A DNA stretch of 64,000 nucleotides from Acidobacteriota bacterium (GTDB taxonomy: Bacteria > Acidobacteriota > Terriglobia > Terriglobales > SCQP01), in assembly GCA_004299485.1 (NCBI GenBank), contig SCQP01000016.1:314996-378995 (forward strand). Reading direction: 5' to 3'. A program made the translations under genes and the position numbers. A model generated the notes under the pieces. That model had not been told where the DNA came from. It saw only the letters and a list, made by a program, of their open reading frames with translations, and searched no databases. Below are positions 2 to 44,154 of this stretch, one piece after another. Each line of letters begins with the position of its first letter. Position 1 is the stretch's first letter.

Positions 2-3000
2 GCCCAGCAGCTCACCGTGAAACCCATCGCGGGCGGCGGACCCAACGCCATGCCGGCGCTGAAGGCCAATTTCATCGCCGGGGTGACGGGACTGGCGGGC
101 GACGCGGCCGGCAACCTGTACATCTCCGACGTGAACCACGTGTTCCGCATGGACAACAGCGGCAACCTGACGCTGCTGGCGGGCACCGGCGCCACCCATG
201 TCTGCGCCAACACGGCATCCGACCCCTGCCCGGGCGCGGTCCGGAGCGGGGCGGCGACGGAAGCGACGTTGTCGAACGTCGCGGCCATCGCGGCCGACAG
301 CGGCGGGGACGTGTACGTCGCCGACTATCTCGACAATGTCGTGTGGAAGATTGACACGGCGGGCAAGATCAGCGTATTCGCCGGCACGGGCGTGGCCGGA
401 TACAGCGGCGATGGGGGAGCGGCGAATCAGGCCCAGTTGCTGGGGCCGCAGGGCGTGGCGGTGGACGGGGCCGGAGACGTGTTCATCGTCGCCGGCGGGG
501 CCAACGGCGTTGCCGCGCATGTGCGCGAGGTCAGCGCGGCGGGCGTGATGTCGACCGTGGCCGGGGGCGGAGGCGCCACGCAGGCGCTGGCGTACCCGTA
601 CGCGTCCATCAGCGCGGTGGCGGCGGACGGCAGCGGGCATCTGTATGTTACCGATTTGGGGAGCCCGACGGCGTTCCCGACCCTCACCCAGATCACGCTG
701 GCCAACGGCAACGTGACTGTAGTCGCCGGTGGCGGCACGGTGGCGCCGGCGGCCGGGGCCACCGCCACCAAGGTCAGCCTTTCGGGCCTGCTGGGCGACA
801 GCGTGGACAGCGCGGGCAATGTGTATTTCGCCACGTCGACGGCCCAGGGCGGCCTGTGGGAGATCGCAGCGGGGAGCAGCACGTTGACGCAGGTGATCGC
901 GGCTCCGAACACGTTTTTGGGCGCCATCTACGTCAGCGCGGCGGGCAAACTGTATGTGGGCGAAAACATGCAGGTGTATGAGGCCGCGGCGGGCGGGGCA
1001 AGCGCGCTGGTGGCGGGGAACGGCAACGCCTACGACTCGTTTATCCACGCACAGGCCTCCGATCCGATCTACCCGGCCCTGAACACGGCGCTGGATCCGG
1101 CGGCGGCGTGGTCGGACGGCAGTGGCAACGTGTACGTGGCGACGTATAGAGACAACGACAGCGGGAAACCGGGACGGCTGAGCCTGGTCACTCCGGACGG
1201 CAATATCGCCCAGATCGCGGGCGGCACACCGATGGTGAACCCGGCGGCGGTGGCGGCGAACGCCGCGGGCACGCTGTTTGTGGCCGACAACCTGACCTCG
1301 ACGGTGTACGCGATTACGCCGGCAGGGGTGGTCAGCGCGTACGCGGGCAACGGCAAGACCGGATTCAGCGGGGACGGCGGCGCGGCAACGAGCGCGCAAC
1401 TGGCCAACCCGAACGCGCTGGCGATTGACGGCGCGGGGAACTTGTACATCGGCGATTCGTCGAACCACGACGTGCGGCGGGTGGACGCCAAGACGGGGGT
1501 CATCACGACGGTCGCCGGCATTGTGGGCAGCGGCACCGACAGCGGGGACGGCGGCGCGGCGACGGCGGCGACGTTCAACGGACCGTGGGCGGTCGCGCTG
1601 GACGGGGCAGGAAACCTGTATATCGGCGACAGCAACAATCCGTACGCGGCGGTGACGGCGGCGGACGTGAGCGGGCGGATTCGCGAGGTGAACGCCAAGA
1701 CGGGCATCATCACGACGGTCGCCGGTTGCGCATGCGGCACGCAGGGAGCGGGGGACGGAGCGGCGGCGACGGCGGCCACGCTGGGTCCGATCGGCGGGGT
1801 GGCGGTGGACGGCGCGGGAAACCTGTACATCGCCGACGCGTTCAACGCCAAAATCCGCGAAGTGATCGCCGCCAGCGGCAACATCGTGACACTGGCCGGA
1901 AACGGGGTGGACAACTACAGCACGGGGACCGGCGTGGCGGCGCAGACCGAGATCGGCGAGCCGATGATGCCGCAACTGGACGCCAAGGGGAACCTGTATT
2001 TTGTAGAACGCAACTCGCACCGCGTTCTGGAGGTGGTCAACGCGGTGGGGGTTCCGGTGGCGTCGGGCGCGAGCCTGACGTTTGCGGCCCAGGCGACCGG
2101 CACGACGAGCGCATCGCAGACGGTGACGTTTACGAATCCCGGCCTGGCGGCGGACGCCATCAGCGGGATCAGCGCCTCGGGGGACTTCAGCGAGAGCAAC
2201 AACTGCGGCACATCGCTGGCGCCGGGCGCCACCTGTACGGTGACGGTGACGTTCACGCCGGCGGCGCTCGGGACGCGGAGCGGCACGCTGGCGCTCGCGA
2301 CTAACCTCGGCGCCACCAGCGTGGCGCTGATCGGGACGGGCGCGGCGCCGGCGACGGCGGGACTGCTGAGCAGCGCGCTGAGCTTCGGGAGCCAGGCCAC
2401 GGGCACCACCAGCGGGGCCCAGACGATTACCGTGAGCAACGGCGGGGGCGTGCCGCTGAGCATCACTTCGATTAGCGTGACGGGGCCGTTCGCGCAGACC
2501 AACGGCTGCGGCTCGAGCGTGGCGGCGGGGGCGAGCTGCAGCGTCAGCGTGACCTTCAGCCCGACCGCAACCGGGGCGGCCAGCGGCGCGCTGACGATCA
2601 ACGACAGCGCGGCGGGCAGTCCGCAGACGGTCAGCCTGAGCGGCACCGGGATTGCGCCGGGCGTGGCGATTACGCCTTCGCAACTGGCGTTCGGCTCGGT
2701 CACGGTGGGCACGCCGAGCGCGGCGCTGGGCGTGACCATCGGCAACAGCGGCAGCAGCGCGCTGACGGTGAGCGCGGTGACGGCGAGCGGGGACTTCAGC
2801 GTGGCCGGCAGTTGCGCCACCATCCCCGTCAACGGGAGCTGCAGCCTGGCGGTGATTTTCACGCCGACGGCCACCGGCGCGCGCACCGGCACGTTGACGA
2901 TCACCGACAATGCGTCGAGCGGAACGCAGACGGTGCCGTTGAGCGGCACGGGCGCGGCGGCGGGCCTGAGCCTGACGCCGGCGAACCTGAGCTTCGCTCC

Positions 3001-33311: not shown

Positions 33312-34442
33312 TTGCAGTCGTACACGAGCGTCACTGTGCCCAAGCTTTTCCGCTCATCGCATATACATCTCTTGCTGGTCATTGGCGTGGCTGCCGCCCT
33401 GCTGTTGCCAGGCGCAGCGCAATCACGCCGCAGACACCGCAGCCATATCCGCCGCGTGCATTACACGCAGAGCTGGAACGCCCGCCCGGTCGCCTACGGC
33501 CTGAGCGCCGACGATGTGACCGGCGGCGAGGACCCAGTCCTGCGCGCCGCGGCAGTGAATGCGCTGGGCGAACGCAACGGCACCGCCGTGGTCGTCGATC
33601 CGAACAGCGGGCGCATTCTCACCATGGTGAATCAAGGACTGGCGCTTTCGGCTCAGTACCAGCCCTGCTCGACTACCAAGATGGCGGTGGGACTGGCGGC
33701 GCTCGATCACGGCGTGGTCACGGAGAATCAGCCGGTACGGATCGCACCCCATGATTCGGTCACCTTCGTCAAGGCCATGGCGTACTCCATCAACGCCTAT
33801 TTCGAGGCGCTGGGCCGGCGCATGGGCTTTGACGCGGTGACGGACTTCGAGCGCGAAGTCGGCTTGGGCGAACGCGCCGGCTGGAACATCCCCGGCGAAG
33901 ATCCGGGCAAAGTGCCGACGCAGCCGGGACCGGGCGGCGTGGCCAAGCTGAGCAGCTTCGGTCAGGGCGTCTACATTTCGCCACTGCAATTGGCGGCGCT
34001 GGTAACTGCCATCGCCAACGGCGGCACCCTCTATTACCTGCAGCACCCGACGACGCGCGAGCAGGTAGCCGACTTCACGCCGCGCGTGAAGCGCCACCTG
34101 AATATCGCCAACTATGCACCTGTCATCAAGGACGGCATGATGGCAGCAGTGATGTACGGCACCGCGCGCGGCGCCCGCATCCGCGGCGAGCACATTCTGG
34201 GCAAGACGGGCACCTGCAGCCGTGACGGCACCCGCTTCGGCCTGTTCGCCAGCTATCAGGGCATCGACCATCCGCAACTGGTGGTGGTGGTGATTTTGCG
34301 CGGCAACGGCGCCGTCTCCGGCCCGCGCGCCGCCGACGTCGCGGGCAAGATCTACGCCGCCCTCGACCGCGAGCACATCTTCACCGCCGAAACCCGCCCC
34401 ACCTCCTGGCCCGCCCTGACTCTCCGCGACGGCGGCTATTAG
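33312..34442 (+). CDS. Penicillin-binding transpeptidase-domain protein (small PBP / class-D beta-lactamase-like)
   Basis: SxxK 'CSTTKM', SxN 'YSINAY' and KTG 'GKTGTC' are present. The signal-like N-terminus is 'LLLVIGVAAALLLPGAAQS'. The start is uncertain: TTG 33312 or GTG 33336. Confidence 0.75.
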   Translation: MQSYTSVTVPKLFRSSHIHLLLVIGVAAALLLPGAAQSRRRHRSHIRRVHYTQSWNARPVAYGLSADDVTGGEDPVLRAAAVNALGERNGTAVVVDPNSGRILTMVNQGLALSAQYQPCSTTKMAVGLAALDHGVVTENQPVRIAPHDSVTFVKAMAYSINAYFEALGRRMGFDAVTDFEREVGLGERAGWNIPGEDPGKVPTQPGPGGVAKLSSFGQGVYISPLQLAALVTAIANGGTLYYLQHPTTREQVADFTPRVKRHLNIANYAPVIKDGMMAAVMYGTARGARIRGEHILGKTGTCSRDGTRFGLFASYQGIDHPQLVVVVILRGNGAVSGPRAADVAGKIYAALDREHIFTAETRPTSWPALTLRDGGY

Positions 34443-34482
34443 CAGCCGCCCTGCTCTTGGGCCGTGCGCAACCGTTTTGCGC

Positions 34483-34512
34483 TTGACATTTCGTGTTTTA
34501 TTCGCCTATAGT
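34483..34512 (+). promoter_or_regulatory. lexA promoter (TTGACA-18-TATAGT)
   Basis: TTGACA is at 34483..34488 and TATAGT at 34507..34512. The -10 ends 8 nt before the ATG at 34520. Confidence 0.5.
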
Positions 34513-34519
34513 GGCGGCC

Positions 34520-35131
34520 ATGGTACTGACCAAGCGGCAACACGAAGTGCTGACGTTTTTGCAGTCCTTTATCGAACGCGAGGGGTATTGCCCAAGCTAC
34601 GAGGAGATCGCCGCGGGGCTGAAGCTCACTTCGCTTGCCACCGTGCATGCGCATCTGGCGACGCTGGAGAAAAAAGGCTGCCTGCGGCGCGGCTTCAATC
34701 AAAGCCGCTCGATTGAGTTGCGGCGGCCGCCGGCGCGGCGCGCGGCCGACCGGGGCGCGCTGCCGCTACTGGGCCGCATCGCCGCCGGCCGGCCGGTCGA
34801 AGCCATCGCCAACGCGGAAGAAATCTCGCTGCAAGACATCGCCCGCAACCGCGCCAGCTTCGTGCTGGAGGTGCGCGGCGACAGCATGATCGAGGATCAC
34901 ATCGTCGACGGCGATTACGTCATGGTGGAGCGGCGCGAAACTGCCGAGGACGGCCAGATCGTGGTGGCGCTGGTGGATGGCGTCGAGGCGACGCTGAAAC
35001 GGCTCTACCACGAGCCCGGCGGCATGATCCGGCTGCAACCGGCCAACGCCAAAATGCCTCCCATTCACGTGGCGGCGAAGCGCGTGCAGGTACAGGGGCG
35101 TGTGATCGGAGTGTTACGAAAATTTCAGTAG
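34520..35131 (+). CDS. lexA: LexA repressor
   Basis: The wHTH is 'LTKRQHEVLTFLQSFIEREGYCPSYEEIAAGLKLTSLATVHAHLATLEKKG'. The cleavage region is 'GRIAAGRPVEA', and the S24 domain has 'VRGDSMIEDHIVDGDYVMV' and 'ATLKRLY'. The track start at 34493 lies inside the promoter spacer. Confidence 0.9.
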   Translation: MVLTKRQHEVLTFLQSFIEREGYCPSYEEIAAGLKLTSLATVHAHLATLEKKGCLRRGFNQSRSIELRRPPARRAADRGALPLLGRIAAGRPVEAIANAEEISLQDIARNRASFVLEVRGDSMIEDHIVDGDYVMVERRETAEDGQIVVALVDGVEATLKRLYHEPGGMIRLQPANAKMPPIHVAAKRVQVQGRVIGVLRKFQ

Positions 35132-35147
35132 CGCGCTGTCGCGTCTG

Positions 35148-35156
35148 TGGTAGAGT
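35148..35156 (+). promoter_or_regulatory. Possible extended -10 (TGgTAGAGT) for the DAHP synthase leader transcript
   Basis: TG-n-TAGAGT lies 14 nt upstream of the leader-peptide ATG. No good -35 is present. Confidence 0.35.
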
Positions 35157-35169
35157 CAGATCTACGTCC

Positions 35170-35241
35170 ATGATTCCCACCTGCATAAGCCGATTTACCT
35201 ATTACTGGTATTACCGGACCAACGGGCGGGATCTGCCTTGA
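35170..35241 (+). CDS. Candidate attenuation leader peptide MIPTCISRFTYYWYYRTNGRDLP
   Basis: ATG..TGA covers 23 codons. Codons 9-15 are TTT ACC TAT TAC TGG TAT TAC (F T Y Y W Y Y). The ORF is AT-rich and is followed by a terminator and the DAHP synthase gene. Confidence 0.55.
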   Translation: MIPTCISRFTYYWYYRTNGRDLP

Positions 35242-35274
35242 GACCTCTCTAGTCCAGGCAGTATCAGAATCCCA

Positions 35275-35311
35275 GGCCCGCTGAAGCGATCTTCAGCGGG
35301 CCTTTTGTTTT
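35275..35311 (+). terminator. Intrinsic terminator / attenuator immediately upstream of DAHP synthase
   Basis: GGCCCGCTGAAG-CGAT-CTTCAGCGGGCC has a perfect 12-bp stem and is followed by TTTTGTTTT. Confidence 0.85.
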
Positions 35312-35324
35312 GCTCAGGAACATC

Positions 35325-36431
35325 ATGTTAATTCGCATGCAGCCCGACGCCACGACGCAACAAACCGGAAACGTCCGCACCCTCCTGGAACGGCTGGGGT
35401 TTACCACCTCGGCGCTGACCTATCTGGGCCCGGGCGTGTACGCGGCCGTGCCCGGCGATGAATGCGAGGAGCTGCCCGAGCCGGATCTGATTGCCGATCT
35501 CCGGACGCAAGGTGCGCTGGCGGGGGTGGCAGCACTGGAGCCGCTCGCGGGAGCCGCCTTGGCGGCGCGGAGCCAACGGCCGCAGGGCACGCGGGTACGC
35601 GTGGGCGGGACGGTGATTGGCGGCAGCGAGGTAGTCATCATCGCGGGACCGTGTTCGGTCGAGAGCCGCGAGCAGCTCGAGCAAACCGCGCTGGGCGCGC
35701 GGGCAGCGGGCGCGCATCTGCTGCGCGGCGGCGCCTACAAGCCGCGCACCTCGCCTTACGCGTTTCAGGGACTGGGCCGCACCGGCCTCGAACTGCTCGC
35801 CGAAACGGGAGCGCGCGTGGGCTTACCGGTGGTGACGGAAGTCATGACCGCCGAAGATGCGCCGCTGGTAGCCGAGTACGCCGACATGCTGCAGGTGGGC
35901 GCGCGCAGCATGCAGAATTTCGCGCTGCTCAAACGGCTGGGCAAGCTGGGTAAGCCGGTGCTGCTGAAGCGTTCGCCCAGCGCCACCCTCGAAGAATGGC
36001 TGGGCGCGGCCGAATACCTGCTGGCGCGCGGCAACAATCAGGTGGTGCTGTGCGAGCGCGGCATCCGGGGCTTCGATCCGCACACGCGCAATACGCTCGA
36101 TCTGAGCGCGGTGCCGGCGCTGCATGAGTTGACCCACCTGCCGGTGCTGGTCGATCCCAGCCACGGCACCGGGCGGCGCGCGCTGATCCCCGCGGCCGCG
36201 CGTGCCGCGGTCGCGGCCGGCGCCGACGGCCTGTGCCTCGAAGTGCACGTGCGGCCGGAAGAGTCGGTGTCCGACCGCGAGCAGGCCATCGCGCCCCAGG
36301 AGCTTGCGGAGCTGATGCCTTCACTGCGCGCCATCGCCGCCGCGGTCGGCCGCACGCTGCCGGCTCCGCTCGCACCCGCGCCGCCCTACGAGGCCGCCGC
36401 TGCCTACTCGACCACGTGCCGGGCGGTATAG
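35325..36431 (+). CDS. 3-deoxy-7-phosphoheptulonate (DAHP) synthase, type I-beta, with an N-terminal ferredoxin-like/ACT-like regulatory domain
   Basis: 'VIIAGPCSVESREQLE', 'LRGGAYKPRTSPYAFQGLG', 'GLPVVTEVM', 'MLQVGARSMQNF', 'KPVLLKR', 'LCERGIRGF', 'VDPSHGTGRR'. The ATG at 35325 has an AGGAA 5 nt upstream. The TTG at 35310 lies inside the terminator T-tract. Confidence 0.9.
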   Translation: MLIRMQPDATTQQTGNVRTLLERLGFTTSALTYLGPGVYAAVPGDECEELPEPDLIADLRTQGALAGVAALEPLAGAALAARSQRPQGTRVRVGGTVIGGSEVVIIAGPCSVESREQLEQTALGARAAGAHLLRGGAYKPRTSPYAFQGLGRTGLELLAETGARVGLPVVTEVMTAEDAPLVAEYADMLQVGARSMQNFALLKRLGKLGKPVLLKRSPSATLEEWLGAAEYLLARGNNQVVLCERGIRGFDPHTRNTLDLSAVPALHELTHLPVLVDPSHGTGRRALIPAAARAAVAAGADGLCLEVHVRPEESVSDREQAIAPQELAELMPSLRAIAAAVGRTLPAPLAPAPPYEAAAAYSTTCRAV

Positions 36432-36441
36432 CGCGGGAGCC

Positions 36442-36735
36442 TCACTGCGCCCCGGGCGGCGGCACGTAAATCGTGGTCTTTCGCGGCTTGGCGAGCTCGT
36501 ACACGAGCAGGACGGCAGCGGCCGTTACCGCCGCGGCAATCAGAGCAACCTTACGCCAGAAAGAATGGTGATGCTGGCCGCCAGCGGCCAAATTTGACGG
36601 AACCTGGGCCGATTGACATTGGAGCCGAAAAACCGTCCATACCTCCCATCGCCACTTTTTGGCAAGCGGCAGAAGCCATTGAAAGCGGCGGAGAGTAATG
36701 ATCCACTCGGAAGCCCGGCAATCATAGGCGTACAC
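36442..36735 (-). CDS. Hypothetical small protein with a C-terminal TM segment (possibly the 3' part of a frameshifted gene)
   Basis: ORF with 'VALIAAAVTAAAVLLVY'. Its reading frame stays open upstream without a start codon and overlaps the 36722..37045 ORF. Confidence 0.3.
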   Translation of the reverse strand: MYAYDCRASEWIITLRRFQWLLPLAKKWRWEVWTVFRLQCQSAQVPSNLAAGGQHHHSFWRKVALIAAAVTAAAVLLVYELAKPRKTTIYVPPPGAQ

Positions 36736-37045
36736 TGCACGCTTCTCGGGCCCACCGAGATACCGGACGGGAAGATTGAGGCTGCCCGCAGGCAGCGTCT
36801 TGCTGCCCAGGGCTGAAGATGCGCTCGTATTCCGTCCGCCGCACCAGTCGCAAGCGCAGCCCGAGGGTGTTGCTGCCGGGCAATTTTCGATAATCGAAGC
36901 GCCACACCGGCTTCACGGGCGGCAGGCGCTGCCCCGCGCAGGGGAGGAGCAGCACCAGGGCGACGGCCGCTGCGCTCAAAATGGACCGGCCTGCCGCGAC
37001 TGCTGAGGTAGGCTTCGCCGCTATGGTAGCGCGCGCTAGCGCCAC
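36722..37045 (-). CDS. Hypothetical small protein with an N-terminal hydrophobic/signal segment
   Basis: 'SILSAAAVALVLLLPCAG' is present. The start overlaps the stop of the upstream 415-aa gene by 10 nt. Confidence 0.35.
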   Translation of the reverse strand: MALARATIAAKPTSAVAAGRSILSAAAVALVLLLPCAGQRLPPVKPVWRFDYRKLPGSNTLGLRLRLVRRTEYERIFSPGQQDAACGQPQSSRPVSRWAREACSVRL

Positions 37046-43041: not shown

Positions 43042-44154
43042 CTACTCCACCACGTGCCGGGCGGTGTAGGTCTTGCGGTAGTCGATGGTGTACTTCAGCT
43101 TTTTCTGCTTCTGGTTGGTGATGATCAGCGGCTGCCCGTCGGGGGCGACCAGCGCGACTTTGACGTTGCGCCTGGTGCCGTCGAGTTTTTTGTTGGTGGG
43201 CACATAGCTGATCAGGTACTGGCTGCGCACGGCGCCGGCGATGTCGCGGAAGACATCGGAGAAGCCGCCGATGAAGCGCGGCTGGTAATAGCGGCCTCCG
43301 GTTGCGGTGGCGAAGTAACGCATTTCGTTGTCGCCCTGCAGCAGGCTCATCTGCGACATGCCGGTGTAGCCGTTCTCCTGCAGCCACTCCTCCAGCGCAA
43401 AGCTCATGCTGACGCTGAAGATGGTGATGTTCTGCGTCTGCGCGATCTGCTTGCGGAGTTGATCGAAGTTGATGTGGCTGAAGGTATTGAGGCCGGTGGC
43501 GATGAGGATGATGGTCTTGTGGCCCTGAACGCCATTGAGGCGGTCAATCGTGTTGGAGAGGGAATCGAACAGATCACTTTCGCTGAAGTTGGCGAAATGC
43601 AGCGAGGAGATGGCGGCCTGGATGGCGCGCCGGTTGTGGGTAAAGTCCACCACGATGGTGGGCTTGAGATCGAAGGTCTCCAGCGCCACCCAATCCTGCG
43701 GCTGCATCGCGCCGGTGAAGGCGTAGGAGGCGTTGAGGATGTTATAGAGGATGGGATACCAGGTGTTGTTGAACTGCACCAGCAGCACCGCGGTCATGGG
43801 CGCGTCGTTGGTGACCGTCACCTTGTCAATGGTCTGCTTGACACCATCCTCAAAAATCTCGAAATCCTTGGCTGGCAGGTTGGGCACGAACTGGCCATCC
43901 TTGAGCTGCACCGAAACCGGAATCTGAACCTCAGGCACATTGACGCTGAAGTTGTATTGTGGCTTCTGCGCGGGCTTCAGGGTCTGCTGCCCGGGCGGCG
44001 GTGGCGGGGGTGTGGTGGGCTGCGCAGGCGTGGTCTTCTTTTTCGGAATGATGACCGGGCCTTGCTTGGGCAGGCCCTGCGCGAAGGCGGCCGCGGCGCC
44101 CAAGCCAAAAACCAGGGCAAGGATCAGCGCGAGAGATGCAGGATGGCGATGCAT
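43042..44154 (-). CDS. VWA-domain protein of the acidobacterial 'VWFA-related' type
   Basis: The signal peptide is 'MHRHPASLALILALVFGLGAAAAFA'. 'FSVNVPEVQIPVSVQLKDGQFVPNLPAKDFEIFEDGVKQ' is followed by a VWA-like body. The ATG at 44154 avoids an 83-nt overlap with the upstream gene. Confidence 0.8.
   Translation of the reverse strand: MHRHPASLALILALVFGLGAAAAFAQGLPKQGPVIIPKKKTTPAQPTTPPPPPPGQQTLKPAQKPQYNFSVNVPEVQIPVSVQLKDGQFVPNLPAKDFEIFEDGVKQTIDKVTVTNDAPMTAVLLVQFNNTWYPILYNILNASYAFTGAMQPQDWVALETFDLKPTIVVDFTHNRRAIQAAISSLHFANFSESDLFDSLSNTIDRLNGVQGHKTIILIATGLNTFSHINFDQLRKQIAQTQNITIFSVSMSFALEEWLQENGYTGMSQMSLLQGDNEMRYFATATGGRYYQPRFIGGFSDVFRDIAGAVRSQYLISYVPTNKKLDGTRRNVKVALVAPDGQPLIITNQKQKKLKYTIDYRKTYTARHVVE

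Follow-up and report, generated by a model that had tools for sequence, protein, structure and literature searches.

A probable leader-peptide attenuator with mixed aromatic codons ahead of a DAHP synthase gene in Acidobacteriota

Classical transcription attenuation is well documented in Proteobacteria and Actinobacteria, and the textbook examples are the pheL-pheA and trpL-trpEDCBA leaders of Escherichia coli. For 3-deoxy-D-arabino-heptulosonate 7-phosphate (DAHP) synthase, aroR-aroF of Corynebacterium glutamicum is the nearest described case. There, according to a later summary of Neshat et al. 2014 (PMC11802643), the same logic has been established experimentally: an F-Y-F leader peptide attenuates an operon that contains a DAHP synthase gene, and the operon is induced when Phe is limiting. 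The aroR leader has also been detected by RNA-seq (PMC3890552). Here, we analyzed a 64,000-nt stretch of DNA from an Acidobacteriota bacterium (contig SCQP01000016.1, positions 314,996 to 378,995; the whole stretch is referred to here as “the window”), in which a short open reading frame (ORF) rich in aromatic codons and an intrinsic terminator precede a DAHP synthase gene. Together, these most likely form a ribosome-mediated (leader-peptide) transcription attenuator of DAHP synthase that senses the charging of tRNA-Phe, tRNA-Tyr, and tRNA-Trp. Because the arrangement recurs in about a hundred sequences from related soil bacteria, the element very probably is a real attenuator of the textbook trp/phe type, and apparently one not described before. 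Its parts are as follows, in positions of the window.

35148..35156, + strand: putative extended -10 element TGgTAGAGT, assigned by eye from its conservation
35170..35241, + strand: leader ORF of 23 codons plus TGA (35239..35241), with its ATG at 35170; peptide MIPTCISRFTYYWYYRTNGRDLP, read directly
35175..35183, + strand: region 1 (UCCCACCUG, codons 2-5), predicted anti-antiterminator pairing with region 2, from the minimum free energy (MFE) structure of the free leader
35194..35214, + strand: regulatory codon cluster, codons 9-15, TTT ACC TAT TAC TGG TAT TAC (F T Y Y W Y Y), read directly
35223..35238, + strand: region 2 (CGGGCGGGAUCUGCCU, the last five sense codons), predicted by folding to pair with region 1 or region 3
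35256..35280, + strand: region 3 (AGGCAG..AUCCC..GCCCG), the predicted 3' half of the antiterminator, overlapping the terminator 5' arm; from folding
35274..35311, + strand: intrinsic terminator with a 13-bp stem (35274..35286 with 35291..35303), loop CGAT, and a U-tract to 35311, from a terminator scan
35316..35319, + strand: AGGA, the Shine-Dalgarno sequence for DAHP synthase, not part of the terminator hairpin and 5 nt before the ATG, read directly
35325..36431, + strand: 368-aa DAHP synthase of type I-beta (Pfam DAHP_synth_1, E 8e-74) with a putative N-terminal domain of the ferredoxin-like type

The raw sequence bears out a preliminary description of this DNA, made from the letters alone, in which a 23-codon ORF at 35170..35241 was reported to encode Phe, Tyr, or Trp at six of the seven codons 9-15. 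This aromatic run is not a chance feature, because the leader ORF is the only one of 351 ATG mini-ORFs (10 to 60 codons, both strands, whole window) with six aromatic codons out of seven, and no such mini-ORF occurred in 100 Markov-1 random 64-kb sequences. The aromatic triplet frequency of the window is 5.3%. The hairpin downstream (GGCCCGCTGAAG-cgat-CTTCAGCGGGCC, followed by TTTTGTTTT) had been described as a perfect 12-bp stem with a 4-nt loop, which holds from position 35275; a flanking A-U pair (35274/35303) extends the stem to 13 bp, and the terminator scan counts 13 pairs, 9 of them G-C, around a loop of 4. Between the end of the T-tract and the DAHP synthase ATG (35325) are 13 nt. A gap this short leaves no room for a promoter; the gene must therefore be transcribed from a promoter ahead of the terminator, and the terminator is thus inside the gene's own 5' leader.

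The gene upstream is lexA (TIGR00498, 199 bits; + strand, ATG 34520 to 35131), and an alternative explanation is that the hairpin is a plain lexA terminator and the aromatic mini-ORF a chance frame in the spacer. The two genes lie on the same strand, there is no other terminator before the hairpin, and lexA transcripts must meet it. However, a purely lexA-serving hairpin does not account for an aromatic mini-ORF that none of the random sequences reproduced, for a gap that puts the promoter of the DAHP synthase gene upstream of the terminator, or for a leader ATG that is invariant among 38 aligned leaders. Furthermore, the same module stands before DAHP synthase genes with a Flp-pilin-like neighbor and at the head of chorismate mutase-DAHP synthase operons. 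We consider this explanation extremely improbable.

Part of the evidence for the attenuator reading comes from alternative, mutually exclusive pairings. In the MFE structure of the free leader, UCCCACCUG is paired with CGGGCGGGA of region 2 (35223..35231), and the terminator is formed. Fold energies in the window are -20.5 kcal/mol for 1:2, -26.1 kcal/mol for 2:3 (35221..35282), and -25.2 kcal/mol for 3:4, that is, the terminator stem at 35274..35303; the z score of the 1:2 segment is -2.1. The 2:3 helix captures GCCCG of the terminator 5' arm and is thus exclusive with the terminator. The pairing of region 2 with region 3 had already been proposed in the preliminary description, and its segments stand except that AGGCAG starts at 35256, not at 35257; region 1 had been overlooked.

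Folding with and without a masking ribosome, a check suggested at the outset, behaved as predicted. We used a 28-nt ribosome footprint on RNA in which the terminator 3' arm was not yet transcribed. With the footprint centered on Trp13, as the A-site codon, the antiterminator becomes the MFE structure and sequesters GGCCCG of the terminator arm, whereas in free RNA, or with the footprint on the stop codon, the terminator 5' arm is unpaired. In this model, region 2 remains free when the ribosome stalls anywhere from Phe9 to Trp13 and is masked when the ribosome is on the stop codon.

From the sequence features seen here, which are conserved together with the gene, and from the mutually exclusive pairings with their partial covariation (described below), we infer transcription start, leader translation, stalling, and regulated termination as follows. 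Transcription would probably start a few bases before the ATG at 35170, and a ribosome would read the 23-codon leader as RNA polymerase approaches the terminator. When charged tRNA-Phe, tRNA-Tyr, and tRNA-Trp are plentiful, the ribosome would reach the stop codon (35239) and cover region 2; region 3 would then be free for region 4, the terminator would form, and transcription would stop at the U-tract (35304..35311). When any aromatic aminoacyl-tRNA is scarce, the ribosome would stall within 35194..35214, and region 2 would emerge unpaired and pair with region 3. This pairing (-26 kcal/mol) would sequester GCCCG of the terminator 5' arm and permit read-through into the DAHP synthase gene. Without translation, region 1 would pair with region 2, and the terminator would form.

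The proposed switch resembles pheL-pheA and trpL-trpEDCBA in its four-segment design (1:2, 2:3, 3:4), in a stop codon set so that the terminating ribosome blocks region 2, in an intrinsic terminator just before the structural gene, and in an antiterminator about as stable as the terminator (-26 and -25 kcal/mol here). It differs from them in that it would control the common first step and not a terminal branch, its codons mix F, Y, and W and do not represent one amino acid, and its leader has no Shine-Dalgarno sequence and probably a very short 5' untranslated region (UTR). By sequence and structure, the window element is also not a member of the corresponding Rfam families, Phe_leader and Trp_leader (RF00513). 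With aroR-aroF, whose enzyme belongs to a different DAHP synthase class, it shares a short leader ORF with Phe/Tyr codons before a DAHP synthase gene, several aromatic amino acids in one leader, and the rise in downstream transcription upon ribosome stalling, which for the window is proposed. In contrast to the window, aroR-aroF is found in Actinomycetota, the AroR cluster is F-Y-F without Trp, and only Phe limitation is reported to act in the summary cited above. The Tyr, Trp, and Phe T-boxes before aro genes of Firmicutes are likewise terminator/antiterminator switches in a 5' leader that respond to tRNA charging, as is proposed here. T-box leaders bind uncharged tRNA directly, are >200 nt long, and carry a conserved T-box sequence; the window element, unlike these, spans ~145 nt, is built around an ORF, and has no T-box match in Rfam.

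A search of positions 34000..37000 against all families of Rfam 15, at E values up to 10, returned none at threshold. The best match was Trp_leader, at 19.3 bits versus a gathering score of 41 (E 1.4), and it covered the terminator only; no other curated leader family matched, even at E values up to 10. The sub-threshold matches (MIR7510, Trp_leader, Bp2_287, and CyaR) fall on the terminator hairpin only, and we discounted them as chance or generic-hairpin matches. In the openly readable literature, we found no description of the element in Acidobacteria, and an earlier mention in subscription-only work (e.g., Vitreschak et al. 2004, Neshat et al. 2014) is possible. What that literature holds on attenuators or leader peptides in Acidobacteria consists of general statements, plus a statistical survey of leader-gene distances (PMC4833913). 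Where the preliminary description knew of no experimentally described case in this kind of genome or on a DAHP synthase of this class, a precedent for attenuation of a DAHP synthase gene does exist in C. glutamicum (PMC11802643, PMC3890552), and in Acidobacteria none was found.

To place the element among its relatives, we sampled 80 genome loci around relatives of the enzyme (contigs from one genome per species) and 80 metagenome loci. A simple scan for a short ATG ORF with clustered F/Y/W codons, followed by a hairpin and a T-run, recovered the pair of ORF and terminator in 39 of the 80 genome loci. In these, the leader ORF stops 19 to 36 nt before the terminator, and the terminator ends 9 to 55 nt before the DAHP synthase start in most (98 to 133 nt in L050 and L054; L012 and L059 fit the 9- to 55-nt spacing after allowing for match offset). 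A covariance model, R1, built from 22 leaders of the main type and applied at a threshold of E < 0.01, gave full-length matches in 45/80 genome loci and 48/80 metagenome loci. The hosts are mostly Acidobacteriota (Terriglobales), with some Gemmatimonadota and Ignavibacteria. Conservation of the mini-ORF before orthologous genes had been named as the point on which the original idea would stand or fall, and the ORF, the terminator, and the antiterminator are kept in ~100 loci.

The leaders fall into subgroups. The window-type leader, M-x(5-6)-RF-x-YW-YY..GRSLP, is found in the window, in L001, L002, L004, and L005, and in the metagenomic loci L081 and L088. This clade is small (7 sequences, of which the L004 and L005 leaders are nearly identical, with the same peptide and the same folds), and a metagenome scan for closer relatives of the window yielded none of >60% protein identity and only these two more window-type leaders. 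The most common subgroup is the MTRFSTFRLFGRYWFPFAAEVQDRSQSP type, and further subgroups are the MTRFTYFFAFTRYWFTRVAA.. and MHAFRFTSFTFAGWPF.. types. Other types carry only F and Y, for example, MRNIDRNNFSFFYFYFYGETAEVRLR (Pyrinomonadaceae), MQANRFSFAFSYRYFFTG.. (Angelobacter), MIRCTSFYYFYFSTK.. (Ignavibacteria), and MSQITAFFGFRFFWSTP.. (Gemmatimonadota). The subgroups are unrelated in sequence, yet an F/Y/W-rich frame is always present, all have the aromatic cluster, and the terminators hold the same place.

In one Acidobacteriaceae metagenome-assembled genome (MAG; locus L080), a main-type leader (439..595, 122 bits) is split from the DAHP synthase gene (from 2501) by a 1.9-kb insert. The insert starts directly after the attenuator terminator and encodes a reverse transcriptase with a group II intron maturase (RVT_1, E 1e-39; GIIM, E 1e-19; ORF 1001..2386). 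The leader at this locus is short of several aromatic codons (MTRFSNLRPLSRYCFTV..).

The alternative pairings are conserved along with the ORF. All seven window-type leaders fold independently into the same three alternative helices (1:2, 2:3, and 3:4). Across these loci the terminator stem CCCGCUGAA/UUCAGCGGG is invariant, and region 1 is variable: its variants are CCCACCUG, UUCCCGCC, CCUCUUCGCCGCC, CGCACUCCACCGC, CACCGCUCC, and CGUUCCGCCC, and in the six loci other than the window its sequence differs but is still complementary to the region 2 of the same locus, which accounts for the variable N terminus of the peptide. The middle part of the 2:3 helix shows compensatory change, reading GGGAU:AUCCC in the window, GGAGU:ACUCC in L001, and GGGUGUG:CGCAUCC in L081. 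For the main family, we aligned 67 distinct sequences to R1 (alignment A6, 71 sequences), a model whose structure does not include the antiterminator. The antiterminator is paired in 86% of cells versus 30 to 42% for slid-partner controls; 10 pairs (31 cells) are changed on both sides, and none of 500 shuffles reached the covariation score. A 22-sequence alignment of the main type (A3), in which the region 1 pairing is present in 88.5% of cells, gave 88 to 96% pairing overall with few compensatory changes because its sequences are 82% identical, and it was replaced by A6. Over 39 loci, the segment from the last aromatic codon to the terminator loop captures the terminator arm with a mean z score of -3.4 against dinucleotide shuffles, and 35/39 lie below -2.

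Conserved helices would also be expected if the switch were real but set by an RNA-binding protein, uncharged tRNA, or a small ligand, with the ORF incidental. The leader's lack of a Shine-Dalgarno sequence is compatible with such a mechanism, as is an RNA-level constraint inside the ORF: CGA-UUU (Arg-Phe, codons 3-4) is nucleotide-invariant in 63/63 main-type leaders, with no synonymous variation. In the main type, CGA-UUU pairs with GGAUCG of region 2, and its invariance fits this pairing. The aromatic codons behave differently from what an incidental ORF would suggest. In the unpaired linker of the main family, they are substituted synonymously or by another aromatic codon only. Codon 13 is TAT in 37 leaders, TAC in 14, and TTT (Phe) in 6, W14 is TGG in 50/63, and F15 is kept in 57/63. 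F7 and F17 are divided between TTC and TTT, and codons 16 and 17 are otherwise variable. Because the Y-W-F triplet (codons 13-15) sits in the linker that separates regions 1 and 2, its conservation is not accounted for by RNA pairing. The leaders contain 23% aromatic residues versus the 5% expected from the triplet frequencies of the window. The conservation of both ATG and open frame, the absence of any Rfam family at threshold, the shortness of an RNA (~145 nt) whose codons are the only conserved unpaired motif, and the recurrence of an F/Y/W-rich frame in subgroups of unrelated sequence all speak against a switch set without the ribosome, which we judge quite unlikely.

In the window type, CGA-UUU lies at codons 8-9 (35191..35196), outside region 1, where its conservation is without explanation. 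It is present in 4/7 window-type leaders, with CGG-TGT in L002, CGG-TTT in L081, and CGT-TTT in L088, and Angelobacter-type leaders carry it as well.

A further possibility is that the leader is translated but acts by nascent-peptide arrest (TnaC-like, with free amino acid) or as a functional small peptide, and not through tRNA charging. Arg-Phe and the aromatic run are indeed conserved at the peptide level in most subgroups. However, the N- and C-terminal parts are unconserved between subgroups and track RNA pairing, and in the window group the leader peptides, of 20 to 23 residues, have the aromatic run as their sole constant part. In addition, if free aromatic amino acids caused the arrest, DAHP synthase would increase when its end products are plentiful, the opposite of what a biosynthetic gene requires. 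We regard an action through the peptide itself as very unlikely.

Several points weigh against the attenuator reading or limit what can be drawn from the comparisons. Because lexA lacks its own terminator, read-through transcripts of that gene probably end at the hairpin as well. In the 28-nt model, a ribosome stalled at Tyr15 has a footprint that extends to 35224, which eliminates the basal helix of the antiterminator; thus, the aromatic codons are not all equally well placed. The z score of the window's own antiterminator is only -1.75. Unlike in trpL and pheL, most of the regulatory codons are found in the loop that joins regions 1 and 2 and not inside region 1, so that a stalled ribosome of the window type would sit between the regions and not on region 1; one might speculate that region 1 could be covered by a second ribosome, queued or initiating on the very short 5' end. 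R1 matches the window at exactly 35167..35312 (19.2 bits, E 0.005), but the match is weak, and terminator-only local matches score about equally, so we read it as consistent with membership. In the main family, the 1:2 plus 3:4 state is paired in 90% of cells, with 20 pairs showing compensatory changes, and the region 1 pairing is present in 86%, with 14 such pairs; because the underlying alignment was fitted to the 1:2 plus 3:4 structure, these counts lean towards it. The main-family covariation is modest, as the sequences are related, and the shuffle control is not phylogeny-aware. Finally, the leader ORF has no Shine-Dalgarno sequence, and its promoter consists of a match to a -10-like element only.

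The start of the transcript can be approached from this -10-like element. The pattern GTGnTAnAnT is kept in 6/7 window-type loci (L088 reads CGGCTATACT), and in the four loci checked, the element lies 13 to 14 nt before the leader ATG. A sigma-70 consensus scan found no full promoter for the window leader, and no -35 element was matched. Since the leader has no Shine-Dalgarno sequence and the element stands 13 nt before the ATG, the leader is probably translated from a very short 5' UTR, a feature that the preliminary description had missed. Leader subgroups other than the window type show the pattern TTGAC-17-TAAnAT at this spacing: leaders of the MTRFTY type, of Gemmatimonadota, and of L059 have a good TTGAC(A/G/T)-17-TAnnnT promoter ending 7 to 9 nt before the ATG, from which the transcript would be leaderless or nearly so. 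The lexA gene in the window has a near-consensus promoter, TTGACA-18-TATAGT (34483..34512, 11/12 matches), that ends 7 nt before the likely ATG at 34520, and the listed start of the lexA ORF (GTG 34493) falls inside this promoter. lexA thus looks leaderless, which fits a leader ORF without a Shine-Dalgarno sequence nearby.

Gene order around the element varies. Loci of the window group have lexA upstream of the leader; in those of the main group, the ORF ~100 to 300 nt before it (e.g., L016, L024, L046, and L068) ends in ...VILVLVIGTVRLIG.NANNAF.S.ASSL, and, judged by eye from the translations, this gene looks like a Flp-type pilin. By this comparison, the element goes with DAHP synthase and not with the neighbor, as it stays when the upstream gene changes. 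At loci where the simple scan had detected nothing immediately before the DAHP synthase gene, the gene stands behind chorismate mutase (with or without prephenate dehydratase), and R1 locates the leader at the head of the operon, and the first gene after it is chorismate mutase (Pfam CM_2, E 1e-24 to 1e-26). These leaders are at the following positions.

Leaders heading chorismate mutase operons: L056:1459-1593, L029:1403-1558, L060:1440-1590, L030:1814-1959, L009:1949-2107, L035:1343-1497, L034:1174-1336, L013:1758-1902

Trp codons are missing from the leaders that head chorismate mutase operons, whose aromatic codons are Phe and Tyr only, and from the other F/Y-only types. A Trp codon is present in 58/67 leaders of the A6 alignment, nearly all of them before stand-alone DAHP synthase genes of Terriglobales, and most leaders of such genes carry Y-W-F. 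The relation between Trp codons and operon content would fit pathway logic, and it is confounded with phylogeny. Taking these comparisons together, we lean, with some reserve, to a broader view in which the window element belongs to a large, undescribed leader family, found neither in Rfam 15 nor in the literature searched, by which the shikimate entry step would be attenuated across Acidobacteriota, with an extension to Gemmatimonadota and Ignavibacteria. The transcript would be leaderless or almost so, a single peptide encoded on it would monitor the three pools of aromatic aminoacyl-tRNA, and codon content would track operon content, with Trp before stand-alone DAHP synthase genes in Terriglobales and only Phe and Tyr where the gene follows chorismate mutase.

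The enzyme itself is assigned to the class I-beta barrel by NCBIfam models (PRK08673, 410 bits with a cutoff of 335; TIGR01361, 361 bits with a cutoff of 268), and its best solved relatives are 1VS1 (E 2.5e-93) and 1RZM (E 3.7e-82). The closest DAHP synthases, at 73 to 74% identity, are from Terriglobales MAGs, so that the initial guess of an “Acidobacteria-like” genome was right; the G+C content of the window is 65.6%. A profile of the first ~80 residues, made from 20 homologues including that of the window, has a match (E 5e-21) to the Thermotoga maritima DAHP synthase (1RZM, 1VR6, and 4GRS) over residues 1-79, which form the ferredoxin-like regulatory domain of that enzyme. The window's own copy (35325..35579) is strongly diverged. 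It is 14 to 23% identical to homologues outside the window-type clade and 36 to 64% identical to L001, L002, L004, and L005, and it has an 8-residue insertion (alignment A4). Searched alone, its 80 residues match PF18152 at only E 0.078 (residues 1-29) and have no match in the PDB. The N-terminal ACT/ferredoxin-like domain that had been claimed for this enzyme therefore holds at the level of the family, through the profile match, and the “two-layer control” (attenuation plus allostery) proposed with it is plausible.

Elsewhere in the window, a second aromatic-rich mini-ORF lies at 43085..43207 (MVYFSFFCFWLV.., 5 of 7 aromatic). We took it as a probable chance occurrence: by eye, the sequence looks coding, possibly for the other strand, and no terminator was seen there. 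The ORF upstream of lexA (33312..34442) has a penicillin-binding-protein transpeptidase domain (PF00905, E 1e-37) and scores far under the cutoffs of named penicillin-binding-protein families.

The element would provide a concrete and abundant example of attenuation in an under-studied phylum, the Acidobacteriota, and leaves the concept of attenuation itself unchanged. A covariance model of the family could be used to annotate soil genomes and metagenomes, and the leaders may serve as a natural system for attenuation on leaders that are leaderless or have no Shine-Dalgarno sequence and as a marker of transcription-translation coupling in Acidobacteriota. For the physiology of these bacteria, the logic would be that the committed step of the aromatic amino acid pathway follows three charging levels together, those of tRNA-Phe, tRNA-Tyr, and tRNA-Trp, probably in addition to allosteric control.

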